Positions 1 to 56,592 of a stretch of 64,000 nucleotides of DNA are shown one piece after another. The stretch comes from a virus: the IMG/VR virus record IMGVR_UViG_3300046804_006785. The stretch is one strand, 5' to 3'. The notes beneath the pieces were generated by a model, which made no database searches, was not told the origin of the DNA, and worked only from the letters and a program-made list of their open reading frames with translations. Positions within the stretch are counted from its first letter, which is position 1. Every line of letters begins with the position of its first letter. The translations under genes and the position numbers were made by a program.

Positions 1-324
1 ATGCAACTAATAAGATACGAAGTTAAAAGCACTTCAGGTAAGTCTTATGGTATATGTACTGGTGGGCATGATTTAACCTTGATGGCTTCCAGATTAAACA
101 TTAGCTTTGATGCTGCTGAAAACCTATGGAAACAAAAACACAAGTGGTTGATTGATCCGGGTGTAGATGGGCAATATTTCTTCACTAAGGACGGTGATAT
201 TTTATTTAGTAAGGAATTATATATTTATGAAGCTGCTTTACATAAAGGATGGGCAATAGAAAGAACTACACTAGAAGCTGAAGACACACCCATTTATCAA
301 GATAAATATCAAGTAGTTTTTTAA
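1..324 (+). CDS. hypothetical protein
   Basis: 107-aa ORF followed by a bidirectional hairpin (aaataaagccagat...atctggctttattt, about 351-386). Confidence 0.6.
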   Translation: MQLIRYEVKSTSGKSYGICTGGHDLTLMASRLNISFDAAENLWKQKHKWLIDPGVDGQYFFTKDGDILFSKELYIYEAALHKGWAIERTTLEAEDTPIYQDKYQVVF

Positions 325-395
325 TATTATATAGGTTTTATCATATAAAAAAATAAAGCCAGATGTTATATAATCTGGCTTTATTTTAACTTAAA

Positions 396-587
396 TTATT
401 TAAACTTAATATCCGTTCGCTTGACCCACGCTGCATTTCTAGTATTTGGATCTCTGATAAAAGCTAAAATCTTGGAAACATCCTCAACATCCACAACCTT
501 ACCTTGAAAACATGGACAATAGCCAAGATACTCAGCTTTTGCAGGTAACACAATGTTAGTGCTGTTTTGTTGTTTGGTTTTACGCAT
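396..587 (-). CDS. small hypothetical protein
   Basis: 63-aa ORF downstream of a consensus promoter and a long structured leader. Confidence 0.5.
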   Translation of the reverse strand: MRKTKQQNSTNIVLPAKAEYLGYCPCFQGKVVDVEDVSKILAFIRDPNTRNAAWVKRTDIKFK

Positions 588-826
588 TGTTTTAATGAGG
601 TTTTAATTATTTAGGCTTTCGCCTACTTGTCTCTCCAAGTTGTCAAGCCACTAATTACCAAGCTTAACTAAACCAAGTAACCGTGCATAGTATCGTCCGA
701 TTTGCTTTGCATCGCTAAGTACAGCTACTACTGCCGTCTGAGTATATCCCTGTTTTCCTCAGAATTACTCGACCCTAATTTAGCCTTGTTGATTGGGCAA
801 GGATTCAGGATGTAAAGAATAATTTA

Positions 827-855
827 ATTATATCAAATCATTTTATCTATGTCAA
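827..855 (-). promoter_or_regulatory. sigma70-type promoter
   Basis: TTGACA (855-850), 17-nt spacer, TATAAT (832-827): perfect consensus. Confidence 0.8.
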
Positions 856-1216
856 GTATTTATTTTACTTGCAATCCAAATATTAAAATTCTCCCAATCA
901 CGTTGATCACAATCATCTCCTTTTGAGTAATCACTTTCCACAAATCTTTTAACATCTCTAGCAATACATTCCTTATCATTGGGCGTGAGTTTATCCCAAA
1001 AATGTTGTACCTAATCAATAATCAATCCAACAGCATAACTACGTCTACCCATAGCGTACCTAACTGCGGACAAAACTATAAAGCCTGTGTCGTGGTGATC
1101 TTCCATCTGTTTTACTCGTTGTTTCATTGTGTTCTGTTGATCAATACACTGTCTATTGTATTGCTATCTATAACATCTCACATATTTTATATTTTAATGC
1201 TACAATAATCACATTC

Positions 1217-1275
1217 ACCCATCAAACAGATGAGACGGTAGCACGCCTCAAATGTTTTATCAGATGGGAGTCACC
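1217..1275 (+). ncRNA. conserved hairpin leader upstream of KilA-N gene, copy 1
   Basis: Near-identical to 34515-34575; nested stems cccatc/gatggg, aaaca/tgttt, tgagacg/cgYctca. Confidence 0.6.
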
Positions 1276-1351
1276 TAACCAATTTAAGCAAAGTAGGCAA
1301 CTATGACAATTTTACAGCATAACTTTAATGATTCTCTAATTCAACATAGAT

Positions 1352-1514
1352 AAGAATTTCAGCCATTTTACTATTATAAGTATTCGCGCACCTTATACAG
1401 CAAAGGTTTCAGCTATTTCGCCCCTTGACACAATTCTTGAAATGGACTATTATAATACCATCCGCGCAACTGAACCTTGAAAACTAAATATAGTAAGGAC
1501 TCTGGAGTGCAGCA
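1352..1514 (+). promoter_or_regulatory. CRISPR leader with promoter
   Basis: TTGACA 1425-1430, N17, TATTAT 1448-1453; ccgcgcaactgaaccttgaaaactaaata resembles cyanobacterial CRISPR leaders. Confidence 0.7.
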
Positions 1515-1695
1515 GTATAAATACTCCCTTAATAGGGAGTTGGATTGAAACTTTTTGTCGCCCATAATTCAGTATTACTCATTCCGTATAAATACTCCCT
1601 TAATAGGGAGTTGGATTGAAACACAAGTGCGGTGATTGTGGTAAATCTTTCAATGTATGTATAAATACTCCCTTAATAGGGAGTTGGATTGAAAC
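1515..1695 (+). CRISPR. CRISPR mini-array, 3 identical 37-nt repeats and 2 spacers (34 and 36 nt)
   Basis: GTATAAATACTCCCTTAATAGGGAGTTGGATTGAAAC at 1515-1551, 1586-1622, 1659-1695; hairpin ACTCCC/GGGAGT; 3' end ATTGAAAC. Confidence 0.95.
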
Positions 1696-2357
1696 TAACT
1701 ACTGGAAGACACAAGGAGCAAAATCCTTTGCTAGTAAAGTCTCTACCGCCCTTCTGAATGGAAGCCCGGCTACAATTACTATAGAAGGTGGTAATGAAAA
1801 AGACATTCAAGGTACATGGGTTCATCCTAAAGTAGCCATGCACTTAGCTATGTCTATTTCTGATGATTTTGCACTTTGGGCAACTGATGTTTTATTAAGA
1901 GTTGTCAATGGTGAGTTTAAAGCGTTAACCGCCGATGCGGAACAGGCACTTAAAAAGCTAAACGAACTATGGGATCTTATTAGACAACATGGTAAAGCTA
2001 CTCGGAATGATTTAACCTACGCCATCAAACAGTATCTTCTAAAACATCCAGATAGTTCTGAGCAATATAAAAGATGGATTTATGCCAATGCTACCAACCT
2101 GATGTATAACGCTGTTTTTGGGATGACTGCACAGCAACTTGAAGAATTTTTAACCTGTGGACGTAATAAATCACGAGATAATCTTGATTCTAAGTGTCTA
2201 GATAAAATAGATCGCGTTGAAAGTGCTATTTGCGATCTGATTAACGATCAAGACATAGAACCTATGGAAGCCGTTGAACGCTATGTTAAGTTCATGAAAT
2301 TGAAACCTATGTTTCCAAATAAAAAGCTTGAATCCTACGACTTAAATTAATCAACCA

Positions 2358-2391
2358 TAAACCCTGATTACATAACATAATCAGGGTTTTT
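2358..2391 (+). terminator. intrinsic terminator
   Basis: aaaccctgatta...taatcagggttttt. Confidence 0.65.
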
Positions 2392-2444
2392 AATTTACTT
2401 AAAATAAGCTAAAATATCTTATACCTTTACATAAAATAATCCCA

Positions 2445-2984
2445 GTGCTGACTAAATTAGAAATTTTAGAAAAACTACCCACTGCCACTAAGGAAGAAAG
2501 ACGGAAATTGTTAAAACTCGCTAGGGAACTAGACAGCGATCCAATAGTTCAATTTAAGAATCAGATTATTCATGGGGACTGCTTTGAGATTTTAAAAAGT
2601 ATTCCTGATGGGTCTATTGATGCTGTAATTACAGATCCGCCTTACATGACAACTGATTTAAACTTTGACAAAGCCGGTTTTGATGTTGATTTATTCTTAA
2701 AATTATTATTACCAAAACTTAAAAATGATGGACAATTAGCTGTATTTGGGAGTATCGAACTACTTGCTAAATTTTCCACTATTTATCCAATTAGATGGTC
2801 TGGTATGTGGTTAAAACCTTTAAGTGTGATGCGAACTCATGATGCTAAAAAACCTATGAGAGAAGATTCTGACTATCCACAAATGTGGGCGAGACCATTA
2901 GATGAGTTTTTAGGAATAATTAGCTCATCTTATATTGAGGGTGTCGTGTGTAGCAATTACCCAAGATTTAATAGGGTTAGTTAA
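2445..2984 (+). pseudogene. truncated or chimeric N6A/N4C DNA methyltransferase
   Basis: IIHGDCFEILKSIPDGSIDAVITDPPY (beta-class catalytic motif); no SAM-binding FxGxG; tail MWARPLDEFL resembles DUF1653. Confidence 0.7.
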
Positions 2985-6655: not shown

Positions 6656-7039
6656 ATGGTAAACGTAAAACAATATACAGGCAAGCTTGCTGACTTGCTT
6701 AACTGGGAACTCGATCTAGAGTTCTGGAATGATGCTCAGGAAATCATTAGGGAGTCTTTACCCTATCCCTATGAATTAGAAACTACTAAAGTATATTTTG
6801 CTTATGCTGGTAGTAGAATAATAGGCTTTATCATCGGTGGTGATGATGGTGATGAGCGAGATGAGTGCTGGCGTATCGCTGTTGATCCTGACTATCGGGG
6901 TCAGGGTATAGCTACTGAATTAGTGAATGTTTCAGGATTAGATAATCCTAGAGACATTGAGAACACAACAGAAGCTAAAGGTTTTTGGGCAAGTTTTGGT
7001 TATAAATCCCCACGACGTAGTTTATTGGTAACTGTATGA
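6656..7039 (+). CDS. GNAT family acetyltransferase
   Basis: IAVDPDYRGQGIATELV acetyl-CoA motif and AKGFWASFGY. Confidence 0.85.
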   Translation: MVNVKQYTGKLADLLNWELDLEFWNDAQEIIRESLPYPYELETTKVYFAYAGSRIIGFIIGGDDGDERDECWRIAVDPDYRGQGIATELVNVSGLDNPRDIENTTEAKGFWASFGYKSPRRSLLVTV

Positions 7040-7290
7040 TGTACTTAGTTAATGGTCGGGTAAAACAGCTAAAAGAACGTATGATAGATATCTATAAATA
7101 CGATTCTAGTGGCTGTTGTATTATGGAGTATTTATGCTTTAAAGATGGTTCTATAATGTTTGCTGAAGAATGTATAGAACTGTCATTTAAAGGATTGCGA
7201 GAATACTTTTTGATGCAAGTTACTAAGCTGATGATGAGGTTTCATTATTGGAATAAGGAACTTGGTCTATGGCTGAAAAAAGAACTTTAA
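7036..7290 (+). CDS. hypothetical protein
   Basis: ATGA overlap with the GNAT gene. Confidence 0.55.
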   Translation: MMYLVNGRVKQLKERMIDIYKYDSSGCCIMEYLCFKDGSIMFAEECIELSFKGLREYFLMQVTKLMMRFHYWNKELGLWLKKEL

Positions 7291-14399: not shown

Positions 14400-14436
14400 G
14401 CTAAAATACTCCCTTAACAAGGAGTTGGATTGAAAC
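14400..14436 (+). CRISPR. solo CRISPR repeat (32/37 identical to the array repeat)
   Basis: GCTAAAATACTCCCTTAACAAGGAGTTGGATTGAAAC. Confidence 0.85.
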
Positions 14437-26707: not shown

Positions 26708-27379
26708 ATGGCAGACTTAGCAGTGTTTAGTTCAAATATGGAAGACAACGGAGCGATTACCACACCTATTACACCAACTAAAAGAGGTAGACCCCGTAAA
26801 GGTGGCGACCTTTCTACCGTTGGTAAAGGTCAAGTGACTGGAATCACTTCCCTAAATTTTGATGAAGCTTCAATAAAAAGTATTAGCTTGATTAGTGAAA
26901 CCCTTGGGGCTGATTTCCTGCCTCAATTGTATCAACGTCTTCAGGCTAAAGCCGCTAGTATGGCTATTGAATTTCAACAAACTAAGGAAAGTGAAGAAGC
27001 CCTGACTATTGCCTCTCAACTTAACATTGAACGCGCTCAAAACATAGGACGTGAAGCGGGTTCTAGACAAATGGAACTGCGTCAACTAACAAAACTGAAA
27101 GACGACGCTGATAAGTGGATGGATGAGCAGTTTGAAAACATGGTGCTGAATTATGCAACCATTGGCATTTCTTATGCTCAAATTGTGACCATGATGAAAA
27201 ATCATGCGTCCAAGCTGCACATTGATCTTGCTGATTTTCAAATTAGCAAAACAGGACAATGGGATTTTCCAGATTACCAGTTTATCCATGAGGATAAAAT
27301 TGAGTTTTGCAAAGCTAGACTCGCCGAGCTTGGCGTGGAAATAGATAAACTAAAAGCACTAGGAATTGAGGTTGAGTAA
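26708..27379 (+). CDS. coiled-coil protein with AT-hook-like motif
   Basis: KRGRPRK near the N-terminus; first gene of a plus-strand operon. Confidence 0.6.
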   Translation: MADLAVFSSNMEDNGAITTPITPTKRGRPRKGGDLSTVGKGQVTGITSLNFDEASIKSISLISETLGADFLPQLYQRLQAKAASMAIEFQQTKESEEALTIASQLNIERAQNIGREAGSRQMELRQLTKLKDDADKWMDEQFENMVLNYATIGISYAQIVTMMKNHASKLHIDLADFQISKTGQWDFPDYQFIHEDKIEFCKARLAELGVEIDKLKALGIEVE

Positions 27380-29359: not shown

Positions 29360-29432
29360 TGGTCTATACTAAAGTCAAAAGAAATTGCTGATAGCCTTAC
29401 TGATAGTCAAACAGCGTATGACTCATGACGTG

Positions 29433-29468
29433 ATATAAATACTTCCTGAAAAGGAGTTGGATTGAAAC
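29433..29468 (+). CRISPR. solo degenerate CRISPR repeat
   Basis: ATATAAATACTTCCTGAAAAGGAGTTGGATTGAAAC; last 16 nt identical to the array repeat. Confidence 0.75.
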
Positions 29469-34514: not shown

Positions 34515-34575
34515 ACCCATCAAACAGATGAGACGGTAGCACGTCTCAAATGTTTTATATCGGATGGGAGTCACC
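34515..34575 (+). ncRNA. conserved hairpin leader upstream of KilA-N gene, copy 2
   Basis: Near-identical to 1217-1275. Confidence 0.6.
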
Positions 34576-34602: not shown

Positions 34603-35415
34603 ATGCCAATTGTACAACATGATTTTAACGGAACACCAATCTCTCAGACAGCCGATGATACTTTGATAGGTAATACATTAGTACCTAAAGGCTATACAAA
34701 CCTAACTGAAATGTGTAAAACTAAGAACAAAAAATTAGGACATTATTTGAGTTTAAAAACTACGCAAGAATATATTACAGCCCTTGAGAAAAACCTGAAA
34801 GTGGATATCGCTATTCCGGTATCCCCTATGGTTATTATCATTCAGGGTTCTTTTGCGGGTATAAGCACTTTTCAGGGAACTTGGGGACATATCGAAGTAG
34901 CTATGGATTTAGCCAAGTGGATTGATGTTGAATGTCGCATTTGGGCTAACCGAGTTTTGGTGAAAGTTGTTCAAGGTGATGTTAAAGCCTTAACACCTGA
35001 AGCAGAATTAGCCATGAAAAAGTTGACCGATCTATGGGAACAGATTCGGCAACATGGGAAAGAAACCCGTCGGACTCTAACCGACGCTATTGCTGCTTAC
35101 TTCAAAAGACATCCTGAATTAACTGAAACTTACAAAAGCGATGTTTGGTGGATGGCTACTAACGCAATGTATAACATTGTATTCGGTTTAGACGCAATGG
35201 AGTTAGAAAAGTTCTTAAATTGTGCGCGTCATAAATCTAGAGATTTTCTAGATCAAAAATGTCTTATGGCAATTGATCGGGCTGAAGCGGGAATTTGCCA
35301 ATTAATAGACAACCGGGATATAGAACCATGTGACGCTGTTTTTCAGTATCGGGATTTCTTTGGCGTAACACAGATGTTCCCAAATAAAAAATTAGTTCCC
35401 GTTGATTTTAATTAA
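34603..35415 (+). CDS. KilA-N domain protein (antirepressor-like)
   Basis: GYTNLTEMCK...HYLSLKTTQEY...QGTWGHIEVAMDLAKW. Confidence 0.9.
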   Translation: MPIVQHDFNGTPISQTADDTLIGNTLVPKGYTNLTEMCKTKNKKLGHYLSLKTTQEYITALEKNLKVDIAIPVSPMVIIIQGSFAGISTFQGTWGHIEVAMDLAKWIDVECRIWANRVLVKVVQGDVKALTPEAELAMKKLTDLWEQIRQHGKETRRTLTDAIAAYFKRHPELTETYKSDVWWMATNAMYNIVFGLDAMELEKFLNCARHKSRDFLDQKCLMAIDRAEAGICQLIDNRDIEPCDAVFQYRDFFGVTQMFPNKKLVPVDFN

Positions 35416-35460: not shown

Positions 35461-35636
35461 TTATAAGCACTTAGCTAGGAACAATTTATCAGTTTCAATC
35501 CGTTTCAATCCGTTTCAATCCAACTCACACGAAAGTGAGTATTTACTGTGATCAACGCTTACAAGCATTTAGCTAGGAATAGCTTATCAGATCGTTCTAG
35601 TTTCAATCCAACTCCCTATTAAGGGAGTATTTATAT
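35461..35636 (-). CRISPR. mini-array: 2 repeats, a GGATTGAAAC stutter, and 2 spacer-like units copying the adjacent gene's 3' end
   Basis: Repeat A 35636-35600 (36/37 to consensus); repeat B 35548-35512 with compensatory stem ACTCAC/GTGAGT; two extra 10-mers 35511-35492. Confidence 0.9.
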
Positions 35637-35649
35637 TTGTCTCAGTCTC

Positions 35650-36321
35650 TTATAAGCACTTAGACAAAAACAATTTATCAGATCGTTCTAGTCCGCAGCT
35701 ATACGCATCAAGCATCACACTTTCTAGCAGTTCTGCCGCATAGATTAGTTTCTGCTTCCAATCGTCCCTAAAAACTATGTCTTTAGGAATATTCATGGTT
35801 ATTTTACCATGTGCTACTATTTTATCAAATGAAGATAGCACACAAGATATATTTTCAGCAACATCAAAGTATCCGTTATGTTGTTGTGGTATTGTTCCGG
35901 CGGCAGTTGATCTAGTAGGTTGAGGGTCATCATGAAATAAGTAGTCATCTATAGGGATGTCTTCTACTTGAGCCTCCATATATTCAATCAGTTCAGCCTG
36001 TGCTTGTTGTGGCACATCTGAAATCTGATATCCCTGGAGATTACAAAACCGTTCAGCCTGTGCGTAAGTGGCTGTTCTGTGGATTAACACCCCTTTAACC
36101 ACGATGATGTATGGTTGAGTTAACCCATCTAGGCTGTCATCATCGTAGTCAATAATGGCAACTTCTTTTTCAACTTGCTTAGGTTGTGGCTGATGAGCCA
36201 GAATTTCTGTAATGCAATCGGCTTTACTACGACGTTTAGCACAACCGATTTGATCACAGATTTTCCATAGTTGATTACGGGTTTTGTGGGATAGTTGCTT
36301 TTCAGAGTAGAAGTATGTCAT
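35650..36321 (-). CDS. hypothetical protein with N-terminal Rho_N/HEH-like motif
   Basis: KTRNQLWKICDQIG..RRSKADCITEIL; ends LERSDKLFLSKCL. Confidence 0.65.
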   Translation of the reverse strand: MTYFYSEKQLSHKTRNQLWKICDQIGCAKRRSKADCITEILAHQPQPKQVEKEVAIIDYDDDSLDGLTQPYIIVVKGVLIHRTATYAQAERFCNLQGYQISDVPQQAQAELIEYMEAQVEDIPIDDYLFHDDPQPTRSTAAGTIPQQHNGYFDVAENISCVLSSFDKIVAHGKITMNIPKDIVFRDDWKQKLIYAAELLESVMLDAYSCGLERSDKLFLSKCL

Positions 36322-53154: not shown

Positions 53155-53667
53155 ATGAAACATTACGGAATACCCCAAACAAGAGACAAAAGTTATGGCG
53201 TTGCTGCCTGTTTAACCTATTGGGTTTTTAAGTGTAGAGATAGAAAGAAAAGCCCAGCAATGGGAACTAAAACCTGGACTTATCTAGAGTCCAGTATTAG
53301 AAATTCAGCCGAAATTTCTACTAATTTAGAGGACTATTTACAGCGACTTTGTGATAAATTATGCTCACAATTAAGACCTGTTGAATTAACAAAAATTATT
53401 CAACCAACACAGCGCATCCTTAGAGTAAATGAAGATGCTACTGAGATTAAAGAACTTCCCATAGATCAAAATTTAGTATTCATGGGATGGTTAGATTTAC
53501 TTGCAGATATTTCACCTGAAGGATTCACAGAATGGGATATTTTAGAACTGCTTAGAACTAAAGCAGGAATTATTCAGGTTTTATGCCGACTAAGATTTGA
53601 GGAAGACCGCGCTTTAGGACTTGATGAGCCAGAAGAATTTATTGATGTTGAGGTAGCAAATGTTTGA
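53155..53667 (+). CDS. csf4: type IV-B small subunit (Cas11-like)
   Basis: Helical 170-aa protein directly upstream of csf2; WTYLESSIRNSA...LEDYLQRLCDKL pattern; call rests partly on position. Confidence 0.65.
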   Translation: MKHYGIPQTRDKSYGVAACLTYWVFKCRDRKKSPAMGTKTWTYLESSIRNSAEISTNLEDYLQRLCDKLCSQLRPVELTKIIQPTQRILRVNEDATEIKELPIDQNLVFMGWLDLLADISPEGFTEWDILELLRTKAGIIQVLCRLRFEEDRALGLDEPEEFIDVEVANV

Positions 53668-54790
53668 TAATTACGATGTTTTTAACAGAGAAAAATTGAC
53701 TTTACATTGTGTGATTACAACACAAACCCCACTAAGCCATATTGGTGAAGTATCTGGTAATGTCAGCAACTTAAAAACGCTTAAACTATTGGATTTTGAA
53801 GGCAATCCTAGAAGTATTTTTACTTATTCTGGTAATGCCTTAAGAAACGGTATTTTAAGACGGGTTGGAGTAGCGGCGGCATTAACAGAGTTAGGATTAC
53901 AGGTTAATCCTGACACTCACCACACAATGTTCGCTGGTGGTAGAATTGACGCGGGTACAGCTTCAGATATGGAGTTAGATAAGAAGATCCGAGTTTTGAT
54001 GCCTTGGTTGTCTGTTCTAGGCACGGCTAAACCTGCTAAAGTTTTTGGATCTAAAGATGCCCAAATGGTGCAAGGTCGGATCAATGTTGGTTCTGCTTAT
54101 CTGCAGTGTTACGAGTCAGCAGAATATATTTACAACCAAATCCCGTCTGCTTTACCACCAAGGGTACAGCCAATCATTGAACAGTTGTTACAAGCTAAAA
54201 ATAAGTTATCTTCAGATCCATTTGTTCCTACAAAATTAGAAGATGCTGATTTTTGGGAAAGTTCTAAATCTAAATATCTTCCGTTACTTCAAAAACATTT
54301 GAAGACATGGACTGAGTATTTAACTATTGATCAAACTACTCGCAGAGATAGCACTTTAGACCCTAATTTACTCAAGTTTTTACCATCAGGAGCACAAGCG
54401 CAATTGAAAGGCGACGGCACTACTAAAGAGAAAAAATCAGATCAAATGATTGCTTCTGATAGGTTAATTATGCCTGGTGCTAAATTATATTCACGCTGGG
54501 ATCTAAATTGTACTCAAGTGGAACAAGGTTGGATTTTTGATACTTTATTAAAGTTTGCTGAATCGCCCTATATTGGTGGTAAGGGCAACCGAGGTAACGG
54601 TCGAGTAAGCCTTAATTTTTGGTTTAGTTCTACCACTGAGCGCGGTTTATTGTGGAGTTCTGAAAGCGGTATTGAGAGTAAGAAATTTGAACTTGCTCAT
54701 GCTAAATACAGGGAATATATCAATCAATATCAGCAATTTTTAAGCGAAGCAAAAACATCAACCGAGTTGAAAAACTTATTAGGTAGTTAG
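53660..54790 (+). CDS. csf2: type IV Cas7-like backbone subunit
   Basis: TPLSHI, YSGNALRNGILRR, MFAGG, SVLG, GRINVG, glycine loop IGGKGNRGNG. Confidence 0.9.
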   Translation: MFDNYDVFNREKLTLHCVITTQTPLSHIGEVSGNVSNLKTLKLLDFEGNPRSIFTYSGNALRNGILRRVGVAAALTELGLQVNPDTHHTMFAGGRIDAGTASDMELDKKIRVLMPWLSVLGTAKPAKVFGSKDAQMVQGRINVGSAYLQCYESAEYIYNQIPSALPPRVQPIIEQLLQAKNKLSSDPFVPTKLEDADFWESSKSKYLPLLQKHLKTWTEYLTIDQTTRRDSTLDPNLLKFLPSGAQAQLKGDGTTKEKKSDQMIASDRLIMPGAKLYSRWDLNCTQVEQGWIFDTLLKFAESPYIGGKGNRGNGRVSLNFWFSSTTERGLLWSSESGIESKKFELAHAKYREYINQYQQFLSEAKTSTELKNLLGS

Positions 54791-54838
54791 CAGTCAACAA
54801 GCCTGGTTTTCCAGGCTTTTCGTCTTTAATATTAATTT

Positions 54839-55546
54839 ATGCAGAATCTAAAAATTACAGCGCACCTATCAACAGCTATCGGCACTTATGATAATTGGAG
54901 TCCATCACTAGAGGGCATCCTAGTCTATCAATTGCTTGAAAATAACAATTTGCTTAGTCCTAACCCCACACCTCAACAAATGGCAGACGTTCAGGAATTT
55001 TTACGAGATAATCTACCGTTAAAACAAGCTACTCTGAAAAATGAATCACACTGGTGCGTTAGTGCGCCTTGTTATGTAATCAAAGGCGAAACTACAGATA
55101 AATACCGTAAACGCTGGGATAATCATGAAAATAACCTAAATTGGGGTAAAAGAAAACCACAATTTAAAACTGGTGAAGGGGCAGAAAAATCTTATGATCT
55201 TCCTTTATTTACTCGTTCTGTGACTAACATTAGCTGGTTTGTAGTTGGTAATAAAACGGGAATTAAAGATTTATTATCCACAGTTACTCACATTCAGAAA
55301 AAACGCAGTTATGGTAATGGTGAAATTAGAGAATGGGAAATAGGTATAACGCATGATGACTATCATCTATGGCGAGATGATAAACTAATGAAACCTATTC
55401 CTGTTAGGTTAGTTGATGATAAATTAGACAATCCTCAAATGGTGTGGGGATGGAGAAGCCCAGCTTGGTTAGCTACTAATAAAGAACTTTGTTATATGCC
55501 CAAGGATAATGTGATTTATGGAACTAGAAGAAAGATTAATGTTTGA
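54839..55546 (+). CDS. csf3: type IV Cas5-like subunit
   Basis: LKITAHL, LEGIL, LPL, SWFVVGN, THIQKKRSYGNGEI, KPIP. Confidence 0.85.
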   Translation: MQNLKITAHLSTAIGTYDNWSPSLEGILVYQLLENNNLLSPNPTPQQMADVQEFLRDNLPLKQATLKNESHWCVSAPCYVIKGETTDKYRKRWDNHENNLNWGKRKPQFKTGEGAEKSYDLPLFTRSVTNISWFVVGNKTGIKDLLSTVTHIQKKRSYGNGEIREWEIGITHDDYHLWRDDKLMKPIPVRLVDDKLDNPQMVWGWRSPAWLATNKELCYMPKDNVIYGTRRKINV

Positions 55547-56222
55547 AGGTTGGGCAAATCTACCACAGTTTAAGAAGAAGGTAGATCAAGCTAAGTCAAT
55601 TATCAAACAAGCTTTGGAGATTGCACCTGCTTATGTGGCTGTAAGTTGGGGTAAAGATAGTGTAGTTATGCTGCATTTATGTCAACAAGTACAGCCGGAT
55701 ATTGTTGCTATATTTTTAACAGATAGTGAACAAGAAAACTTTGGTAACTATTCTGATGTCATCAAACAATACTTAGACAAATATCAGACAAATTATCTAG
55801 AACTTGATCTTATTGGTGATAGGATACCTCACAAGTTTGAAGCGGCTGAACTGTGGAAAACATACCCAGTAGCTTTTCAAGGATTACGATTAGAAGAAGG
55901 CGGAAAAAGGAAATTTAGTTTGAATAAATATGGGCATACCTATCAATTAGCCAATGGTAGTTACAGAGTATGTCCGTTGATTTATTGGGGATGGAAGGAT
56001 ATTTGGGCATACATTGTCATCAACAATTTACCCTACTTGGATGTTTACGATCACTCAATTAACAGTGATAGATCAAAGTCAAGATCCTGTAATCTGTTAG
56101 CTAAAGAACAAGGCAATACAAAAGCAGTAGAAACGGGTAGAATAGCTAGATTAAGACTTTTAAATCCTGAATACTATAACTATCTTCAGGAAAATTATCC
56201 ACACTTAGCGTCAGCAACTTAA
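55518..56222 (+). CDS. cysH: CysH/PAPS-reductase-like type IV-B accessory protein
   Basis: VAVSWGKDSVVMLHL PP-loop, GLRLEE, CPLIYWGWKDIWAYI. Confidence 0.85.
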   Translation: MELEERLMFEGWANLPQFKKKVDQAKSIIKQALEIAPAYVAVSWGKDSVVMLHLCQQVQPDIVAIFLTDSEQENFGNYSDVIKQYLDKYQTNYLELDLIGDRIPHKFEAAELWKTYPVAFQGLRLEEGGKRKFSLNKYGHTYQLANGSYRVCPLIYWGWKDIWAYIVINNLPYLDVYDHSINSDRSKSRSCNLLAKEQGNTKAVETGRIARLRLLNPEYYNYLQENYPHLASAT

Positions 56223-56223
56223 T

Positions 56224-56592
56224 ATGATTCAGATGAAATATTACAAAGATGCAAACATTGATGAATGGTTAAGCATGGCAGGCTCTCAAGCCAAGGGGTT
56301 ACCTTTAGTCAAATCTGGTAACTTTGCGGCTGATATGCTCAAGTTTGACCGATGGGAACAAACAACTTTACACACTCACCCCGGTGATCATATTTTATTT
56401 GTGGTTGAGGGTGATGGATGGTTAGATTATGGTGATAAAACTTATGATCTAGCTATAGGTAGTTGCTATTTTGTGGTAGGTCGTATACCTCACAGAGTAC
56501 GGGCTTCCAGTGCAGGAATGTTTCTACTCGCTATTGCTAATAATCATTACTCCGTTGATAATCCTGACAGGTTAGAGGTGATCCGTGAGTAA
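56224..56592 (+). CDS. cupin domain protein
   Basis: LHTHPGDHILFVVEG...GRIPHRV cupin motifs. Confidence 0.9.
   Translation: MIQMKYYKDANIDEWLSMAGSQAKGLPLVKSGNFAADMLKFDRWEQTTLHTHPGDHILFVVEGDGWLDYGDKTYDLAIGSCYFVVGRIPHRVRASSAGMFLLAIANNHYSVDNPDRLEVIRE

Follow-up and report, generated by a model that had tools for sequence, protein, structure and literature searches.

A CRISPR mini-array within a KilA-N gene of a cyanophage: relatives, target motif and probable origin by recombination of a spacer with its target

How does a CRISPR array come to lie inside a viral gene, and could it act from there on the intact copies of that gene? This question is raised by the IMG/VR virus record IMGVR_UViG_3300046804_006785, of which a stretch of 64,000 nucleotides (nt), called the window below, was analysed; in it, a KilA-N gene is interrupted by a CRISPR leader and three repeats. 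A sequence-only reading of the window had described a gene start at 1303 with 16 codons, a leader with three perfect repeats in place of the following codons, and the resumption of the gene at 1696, all of which was confirmed. It had interpreted the arrangement as array homing, in which the last repeat makes the flanking KilA-N sequence a guide against uninterrupted alleles, and had mentioned recombination of a spacer with its protospacer as an alternative. In our analysis this alternative became the best-supported reading, owing to the exact right junction, the protospacer-adjacent motif (PAM) at the target and the fact that no new mechanism is needed: the array probably entered KilA-N when a spacer of an array recombined with a PAM-flanked protospacer, the other end being sealed illegitimately.

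The segment 1346-1695 is a genuine leader followed by a mini-array of three repeats and two spacers, which belongs to a CRISPR system from a freshwater cyanophage family (Table 1). The 37-nt repeat is present in three mismatch-free copies, where 0 matches are expected from shuffled sequence; the terminal copy, which the sequence-only reading had taken to be intact, is indeed so and folds like the other two. The hairpin predicted for the repeat (-10.7 kcal/mol, z -2.95) is followed by exactly 11 unpaired nt, a tail which fits the handle rule of the type I-C enzyme Cas5d, the cleavage itself being putative. The leader has a length of 169 nt, contains a near-consensus promoter and is homologous to the leaders of a 31-repeat and a 34-repeat array in relatives. 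As no terminator was predicted before 2359, transcription that starts at the leader promoter would continue across repeat 3 and enter KilA-N. With its leader, its two spacers and no adjoining cas genes, the locus has the composition of a virus-borne mini-array; the phage context of the window rests on synteny with IMG/VR records and on a gene of a Nodularia phage. Spacer 2 is nearly the reverse complement (24/25) of one spacer in array 1 of the phage records G001 and G002 introduced below. An Rfam search gave no family at gathering score.

The extent of the interruption can be read from uninterrupted alleles, which were located by a protein search with the KilA-N remainder and then compared at the DNA level. 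The Logan contig L025 is collinear with window positions 1-2644 (93.5% identity over 1-1349 and 1695-2644); its counterpart to window 1350-1694 is an 89-nt stretch of KilA-N which codes for QSSSDVTLAGHLIPKGWTNATAMCKANNKTWS. At the array site, no interruption is present either in the GenBank metagenome contig JACCEB012119773.1 (L029), which has 100% identity to window 1695-1950; the KilA-N genes of contigs L036 and L026 and of Nodularia phage 2AV2 are likewise uninterrupted there. The array allele is a replacement of about 90 nt of KilA-N rather than a clean insertion. The homology of the 5' stub to the intact alleles stops at about 1345, and the frame from 1696 (NYWKTQGAKSF...) matches the Pfam family KilA-N (PF04383) from profile position 35 to 103 of 107. 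The domain is thus incomplete by its first 34 positions, a part which is present in P0019 and P0006. This agrees with the earlier claim that a segment GYxNxTxMCK is missing here and is found in the paralog at 34603-35415. Peptide-pattern searches for close KilA-N relatives in IMG/VR led to Nodularia phages only.

The two junctions differ in precision. The right one (1695|1696) is exact: from the last base of repeat 3 onwards, the window is homologous to all intact alleles. The left one (1345|1346) is defined to within +/-3 nt and shows a microhomology of 1-3 nt only. It falls in the loop of a palindrome which in relatives is the terminator between cas7 and the leader; the window retains the right arm alone. 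At either junction the sequence is clean and stays in register with the intact alleles. The Logan assembly of run X1, possibly the source sample, has contigs over 300-1375 and 1668-2700 that show zero differences to the window, each of them extending only 25-30 nt beyond its junction; 1346 is exactly where the shared part begins in X1. The interrupted allele was found in one sample only (X1/X2), the intact one in at least five other contigs and in runs of three other studies.

A target of a CRISPR system should be flanked by the PAM of that system, which, for this phage family, is probably 5'-GTN and often GGTN. The motif was deduced in two independent ways, namely from the comparison of empty sites (five flanks) and from genuine spacers which overlap in opposite orientation (four flanks). 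The empty-site flanks are GGTC at KilA-N, GGTA at the gene of a protein of 63 amino acids (aa) (window 544-547), GGTA at window 7027-7030, GGTA at window 7059-7062, and GGTT at G001 27367-27370. In two pairs of genuine spacers, the partners come from different arrays and overlap in opposite orientation, so that the flank of each can be read from the other; these flanks are GTT, GTC, GTT and GTC. Hence all nine flanks read GTN, at a background frequency of GT of 0.054 in these genomes (P about 4e-12). Several spacers in different arrays of G001 and L036 share about 30 nt in opposite orientation, as if fragments with a GTN flank on both strands had been captured twice. The intact KilA-N alleles read CTTGGTC just before TAACTACTGG, with GGTC in L025, L026, L029, L036 and 2AV2; this is the place at which the sequence-only reading had proposed to look for a PAM, and GTC is present within GGTC. 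In the window, AAC from the repeat end stands in place of this PAM. Judged by these comparisons, the KilA-N site is a bona fide PAM-adjacent target for the CRISPR system of the family. Type I-C systems are described with the PAM 5'-TTC; as the motif of this family, TTC was ruled out by the nine flanks. The idea that GGT represents a microhomology with the 3' end of the repeat was dropped as well, since the flanks of the genuine spacers show GTN without any junction.

Which phages could have supplied the array? The repeat was found in two phage records of IMG/VR, namely G001 with 118.5 kb and G002 with 111.7 kb, which have about 14 kb in common with the window at 90-94% identity. The G001 leader heads a 31-repeat array and matches window 1346-1696 with 88% identity according to blastn (leader plus repeats and spacers); that of L036 heads a 34-repeat array and matches window 1352-1695 with 84%. 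Aligned leaders of the window, G001 and L036 differ at few positions. Directly 5' of the leader, G001 and G002 encode Cas7/Csd2 (Pfam, 1.6e-87), Csd1/Cas8c (9.4e-61) and Cas5d (2.8e-26); the locus also contains a divergent Cas3 (HD plus helicase/DEAD) and a second, inverted array of 22 repeats. Contigs L036 and L039 have the same layout, L039 with arrays of 10 and 29 repeats, and two inverted arrays flank the cas operon in G001/G002 and in L039. Cas1 (PF01867) had no match in G001 (93% complete) or G002 (91% complete), where cas7 is directly followed by the leader. The effector set of the relatives thus appears to be type I-C-like and devoid of adaptation genes. In L036, 45 nt separate the end of the main array from the homolog of the window's first open reading frame (ORF), and L025 begins inside the same terminal repeat; therefore, KilA-N of close relatives has the effector genes and main array about 1.4 kb to its left. 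The X1 Logan contig stops 64 nt left of window position 1, which would fit an array to the left of the window like that of L025 and L036. Among cellular Cas7 proteins, those of Dolichospermum and Sphaerospermopsis are nearest (69-70% identity), and this likeness, the sole hint at a host, suggests that it be sought there. A chromosomal I-C locus of Dolichospermum has the same gene order, no adjoining adaptation genes and a 37-nt repeat with identical last 10 nt. Two patterns of the phage repeat had no match in 185,579 species-representative genomes.

The architecture seen at KilA-N is found at further loci. In G001, the final repeat of array 1 runs straight into the start of the 63-aa gene, which is truncated there but whole in the window (396-587, minus strand); the junction corresponds to window 548. 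A GNAT acetyltransferase gene (window 6656-7039) is mostly replaced by a single repeat in G001/G002 and in L039. The left junction of these solo repeats is identical; the right junctions are 32 nt apart, which is about one spacer length, and each lies behind GGTA. The left junctions of the solo repeats have no GTN one spacer length upstream and are thus not spacer-like. In L029 (reverse complement 1098-1135), the 5' end of a repeat is joined to KilA-N at window-equivalent 1950, where the contig ends. In the window itself, the solo repeat at 35512 shows compensatory changes in the stem and three tandem GGATTGAAAC units; behind this repeat and behind the one at 35600, both on the minus strand, lies in each case a variant of the 3' end of gene 35650-36321. 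All in all, a terminal or solo repeat abuts native sequence at GGTN at four loci besides KilA-N, in relatives.

Table 1. Coordinates of the array, of the interrupted gene and of related features. Positions without a prefix refer to the window.
Feature	Position	Strand	Remarks
Conserved element of about 60 nt 5' of the KilA-N start	1217-1275	+	common to paralog (34515-34575) and intact alleles
KilA-N 5' stub	1303-1353	+	ATG, 16 codons MTILQHNFNDSLIQHR; stop 1351-1353 made by the insertion
Right arm of cas7 terminator hairpin, then CRISPR leader	1346-1514	+	same sequence between cas7 and main array in G001 and L036
Promoter-like site in leader	1425-1453	+	TTGACA-17-TATTAT, 11/12; kept in G001 and L036 leaders
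CRISPR repeat 1	1515-1551	+	perfect copy of 37-nt GTATAAATACTCCCTTAATAGGGAGTTGGATTGAAAC; 7-bp stem, 4-nt loop, then 11 nt UGGAUUGAAAC
Spacer 1	1552-1585	+	34 nt
CRISPR repeat 2	1586-1622	+	perfect copy of 37-nt GTATAAATACTCCCTTAATAGGGAGTTGGATTGAAAC
Spacer 2	1623-1658	+	36 nt
CRISPR repeat 3	1659-1695	+	intact copy of GTATAAATACTCCCTTAATAGGGAGTTGGATTGAAAC; final base is the right junction
Former protospacer ("pseudo-spacer")	1696-1730	+	KilA-N sequence directly 3' of repeat 3; identical in L025, L029, L036
KilA-N remainder	1696-2350	+	rest of KilA-N domain and C-terminal domain; stop 2348-2350
First terminator-like hairpin 3' of the array	2359-2389	+	hairpin prediction
Intact KilA-N paralog, 270 aa	34603-35415	+	retains KGYTNLTEMCK
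Further solo repeats in the window	14400-14436, 29432-29468, 35512-35548 (-), 35600-35636 (-)		hairpin and GAGTTGGATTGAAAC kept
Solo repeats at the GNAT site	G001:C1:7160-7196; L039:20664-20700		replace window 6730-7030 or 6730-7062
cas3 and cas5d-cas8c-cas7 with array(s)	L004:9512-14092 (G001); L036:3-7474; L039:5565-11793
Main arrays	G001: L004:7073-9283, L022:5838-7390; L036:5053-7474

How could these elements have been brought together? We envisage a mixed infection in which a cas-bearing relative would attack the KilA-N allele and the broken KilA-N DNA would be repaired with the attacker's array as template. Recombination of the spacer with its target would set the right junction at the repeat end, thereby swapping the PAM GTC for AAC. 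Repair copying would halt at the terminator hairpin in front of the leader, and the left end would be joined illegitimately at the apex of this hairpin, about 90 nt being lost from the KilA-N target on its PAM side. At the GNAT locus, the loss on the PAM side is 300-330 nt. A precise, PAM-adjacent right end combined with an imprecise left end and PAM-side loss fits an attack of the Cas3 type followed by repair; the direction of Cas3 resection is taken here from type I systems in general. What the sequences show are the anatomy, the empty alleles, the PAM motif, the cas-bearing relatives and the return of this architecture at other loci; in which order the events took place, what part Cas3 damage had in them and whether the array has a function today is inferred. 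As the PAM is replaced, the resulting allele would not be hit by the donor's KilA-N spacer. From its own promoter, the mini-array can presumably still express two ordinary guides and a repeat-handle RNA running into KilA-N.

What is expected of a recombination product is found at the locus: the junction coincides with the repeat/spacer boundary, and in the parental allele a PAM lies beside the target. Recombination also explains the imprecise left junction and the PAM-side loss. This origin is favoured because it accounts for the anatomy without a present function or a new mechanism.

Several observations weigh against it. A donor array with the KilA-N spacer between two repeats was not found in IMG/VR or in the metagenome collection; searched with degenerate patterns of the KilA-N target, IMG/VR yielded no match and the metagenome contigs only the intact allele L029. 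In addition, 0 of 121 unique spacers from relatives match KilA-N. As no donor array was found, the key intermediate is one that we infer. The left junction is not explained by homology, so that a second, illegitimate event would have to be assumed. A tblastn search of the 64-kb window detected no type I-C cas genes, and the motif GTN is not the TTC of type I-C systems. Moreover, two of the seven empty-site comparisons (window 14436 and L039 18585) were ambiguous and were excluded from the PAM count. The only perfect pair of spacer and target, L036:5384-5419 and G001:C1:72715-72750 (36/36), has the flank GAT, which is possibly a PAM escape. The same pair indicates that phages of the family do carry spacers against each other.

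Array homing, the reading preferred at first, assigns a present function to the position of the array. Run-on RNA from repeat 3 would be cut to a guide with an 11-nt handle, a type I-C effector would cut intact KilA-N, and the repair would copy the array into the break. We consider this unlikely, and equally doubtful is the associated proposal that a co-infecting relative or the host would lend the effector, the array being a protein-free selfish unit, whatever its first origin. The ingredients are at hand, as repeat 3 is intact and folds normally, the leader promoter is close to consensus and the first predicted terminator lies at 2359. The intact alleles of L025, L029 and L036 have an identical 35-nt target with GGTC, the self copy having AAC, and L036 combines an intact allele with genes for the effector itself. 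Full, undecayed repeats are followed by native PAM-adjacent sequence at at least five loci, and at 35461-35700 each repeat is followed by displaced copies of the 3' end of the gene. However, the interrupted allele is confined to the sample mentioned above, with intact alleles in five other contigs and in the runs of three other studies, and the window itself is without a I-C cas gene. The CRISPR RNAs (crRNAs) of type I-C systems normally retain the 3' hairpin of the next repeat (PMC5965381), which the run-on RNA would lack. Two metatranscriptome runs contained under 5% of the sampled sequence words. Furthermore, the insertion destroys KilA-N and supplies no rescue copy, and a single past recombination event predicts all observations equally. 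Thus, homing passed both sequence tests that were run, since PAM-bearing intact alleles exist and a chimera is unlikely, but the same facts fit recombination. If homing were nevertheless true, the last repeat would make the adjoining native sequence a guide, and every GTN-bearing allele would be cut and then converted. That the repeats and mini-arrays of the family are protein-free homing elements, forming a natural CRISPR gene drive between viruses, is to be judged improbable.

A further explanation holds that the position of the array and the run-on are without function. The locus would be an ordinary mini-array, serving superinfection exclusion by means of a borrowed effector, or an RNA decoy for the Cas5d or Cascade of the host; we regard this as quite unlikely. 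Arrays with a leader, one or two spacers and no cas genes are known in viruses (PMC6858448), and solitary repeat units have been proposed as inhibitors, as summarised in PMC8616872. A host enzyme might process the phage repeats, given the last 10 nt shared with the I-C repeat of Dolichospermum. In addition, the KilA-N paralog at the array site is, by comparison of the alleles, dispensable and decaying in the lineage: it has a nonsense codon at residue 173 in L025 (1632-2430) and a 2-nt deletion after window-equivalent 1877 in L036 (9078-9870), and it is absent from G001 and L039. On the other side, spacers 1 and 2 had no target in GenBank phages, in IMG/VR or in the relatives compared; in IMG/VR, their exact cores matched the arrays themselves and nothing else. 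The run-on sequence behind repeat 3, in contrast, matches relatives perfectly. The spacers of the 31-repeat array of G001 had no match in GenBank phages either. An ordinary mini-array or decoy also leaves unaccounted for that the junction lies at a repeat end beside a PAM site, both here and at four other loci.

Finally, it is very improbable that a mis-assembly joined the leader and repeats to KilA-N in a sample with several related phages, or that there is a chimera at either junction, which the sequence-only reading had named as refuting its idea: although the leader depth in X1 is about 3x that of the flanks, so that the leader occurs there also in other contexts which invite mis-joins, the independent Logan assembly of X1 covers both clean junctions without a difference, and the uninterrupted form is present in three runs from other studies.

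For the favoured recombination origin, the relation to known systems remains to be described. Medvedeva et al. 2019 (PMC6858448) describe virus-borne mini-arrays with leaders whose targets in relatives lie close to the array; such arrays were also treated by Faure et al. 2019, as summarised in PMC8616872. The array in the window resembles them in its leader promoter, the number of one to two spacers, repeats as in full arrays, the lack of adjoining cas genes and the location in a viral genome; moreover, relatives have spacers against each other and the targets lie near the array. Unlike these, the array described here is located inside a gene, its last repeat is fused to PAM-adjacent target sequence, its two true spacers had no target among the phages searched, and sister phages, rather than the host alone, carry full arrays and effector genes.

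That spacers recombine with their targets is known from phages and CRISPR loci (PMC8616872, which summarises Varble 2019 and Watson 2018). According to this summary, phage DNA and array are joined through homology as long as one spacer, with the junction at the repeat/spacer boundary, as in our case; there, host CRISPR loci were moved in transducing particles in the laboratory, whereas the window represents a natural, viable-looking phage genome with a small array patch, which probably came from a different phage, and events of this kind are seen at several loci. Type I-C systems consist of cas3, cas5d, cas8c, cas7, cas4, cas1 and cas2, and Cas5d leaves an 11-nt 5' handle (PMC5965381). The relatives agree with them in having Cas3, Cas5d, Csd1/Cas8c and Csd2/Cas7 beside the arrays and a repeat hairpin followed by 11 nt ending in GGATTGAAAC. 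They differ in lacking cas1 in two phage records which are more than 90% complete, in the 37-nt repeat, in the two inverted arrays and in the PAM GTN; the window phage also differs in having no I-C gene within the 64 kb.

The omega RNAs of TnpB/IscB and the homing crRNAs of CRISPR-associated transposons take their guides from flanking DNA. By analogy, the neighbouring DNA would supply the guide here, and the self copy would be protected by a destroyed motif. In contrast to those systems, no transposase or TnpB-type nuclease is found at the window locus: there is no ORF between stub and array, and among the neighbouring ORFs, Pfam identified KilA-N, a DHH/DHHA1 protein and a family A polymerase, with no OrfB/TnpB or RuvC family. 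The likeness to TnpB drawn by the sequence-only reading is an analogy only, no such nuclease being involved. RNA anti-CRISPRs in phages were reportedly described by Camara-Wilpert and colleagues in 2023. Like these and the solitary repeat units, the solo repeats at 14400, 29432, 35512 and 35600 are phage repeats without cas genes; 1346-1695, with a leader and two ordinary spacers, is an array instead.

Phage-borne mini-arrays and spacer-target recombination are, each separately, known already. The literature searched contained no naturally occurring collection of alleles, filled and empty, for which the PAM is defined, no sister phages with an adaptation-less I-C-like effector and a GTN motif, and no repeated capture of native sequence behind a terminal repeat. 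The alleles described here form a natural series, in which empty and filled alleles share the same repeat and a defined PAM and which comprises at least five independent junctions. They indicate that phage-carried CRISPR arrays reshape the genomes of competing phages, and they document a cyanophage lineage whose I-C-like effector appears to lack adaptation genes and whose motif, GTN, is unexpected. Whether a repeat makes its neighbour a guide is directly testable, as the effector genes (G001, L036), the array (window) and the targets (L025, L029, L036) are known as sequence. If the run-on guide worked, this would be the simplest selfish CRISPR element described.

Some further observations concern the surroundings of the locus. 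The element of about 60 nt in front of both KilA-N paralogs of the window is nearly identical in the two; it is kept in L025 and L026 and partly in Nodularia phage 2AV2, and it had no match in Rfam. In the window region 53155-57250, weak but consistent NCBIfam matches to the type IV genes csf2 and csf3, to a cysH-like gene and to csf1 (53660-57250) were noticed, all below the curated cut-offs and with no adjoining array. Downstream of the KilA-N remainder, a methyltransferase-like ORF (2445-2984) and two small neighbouring ORFs had no Pfam match. With 179 aa, this ORF is short; in L036 there is an N6_N4 methylase of 331 aa, together with about 1.3 kb of extra sequence between window-equivalents 2644 and 2860, and the window appears to carry a deletion around the methyltransferase-like ORF.

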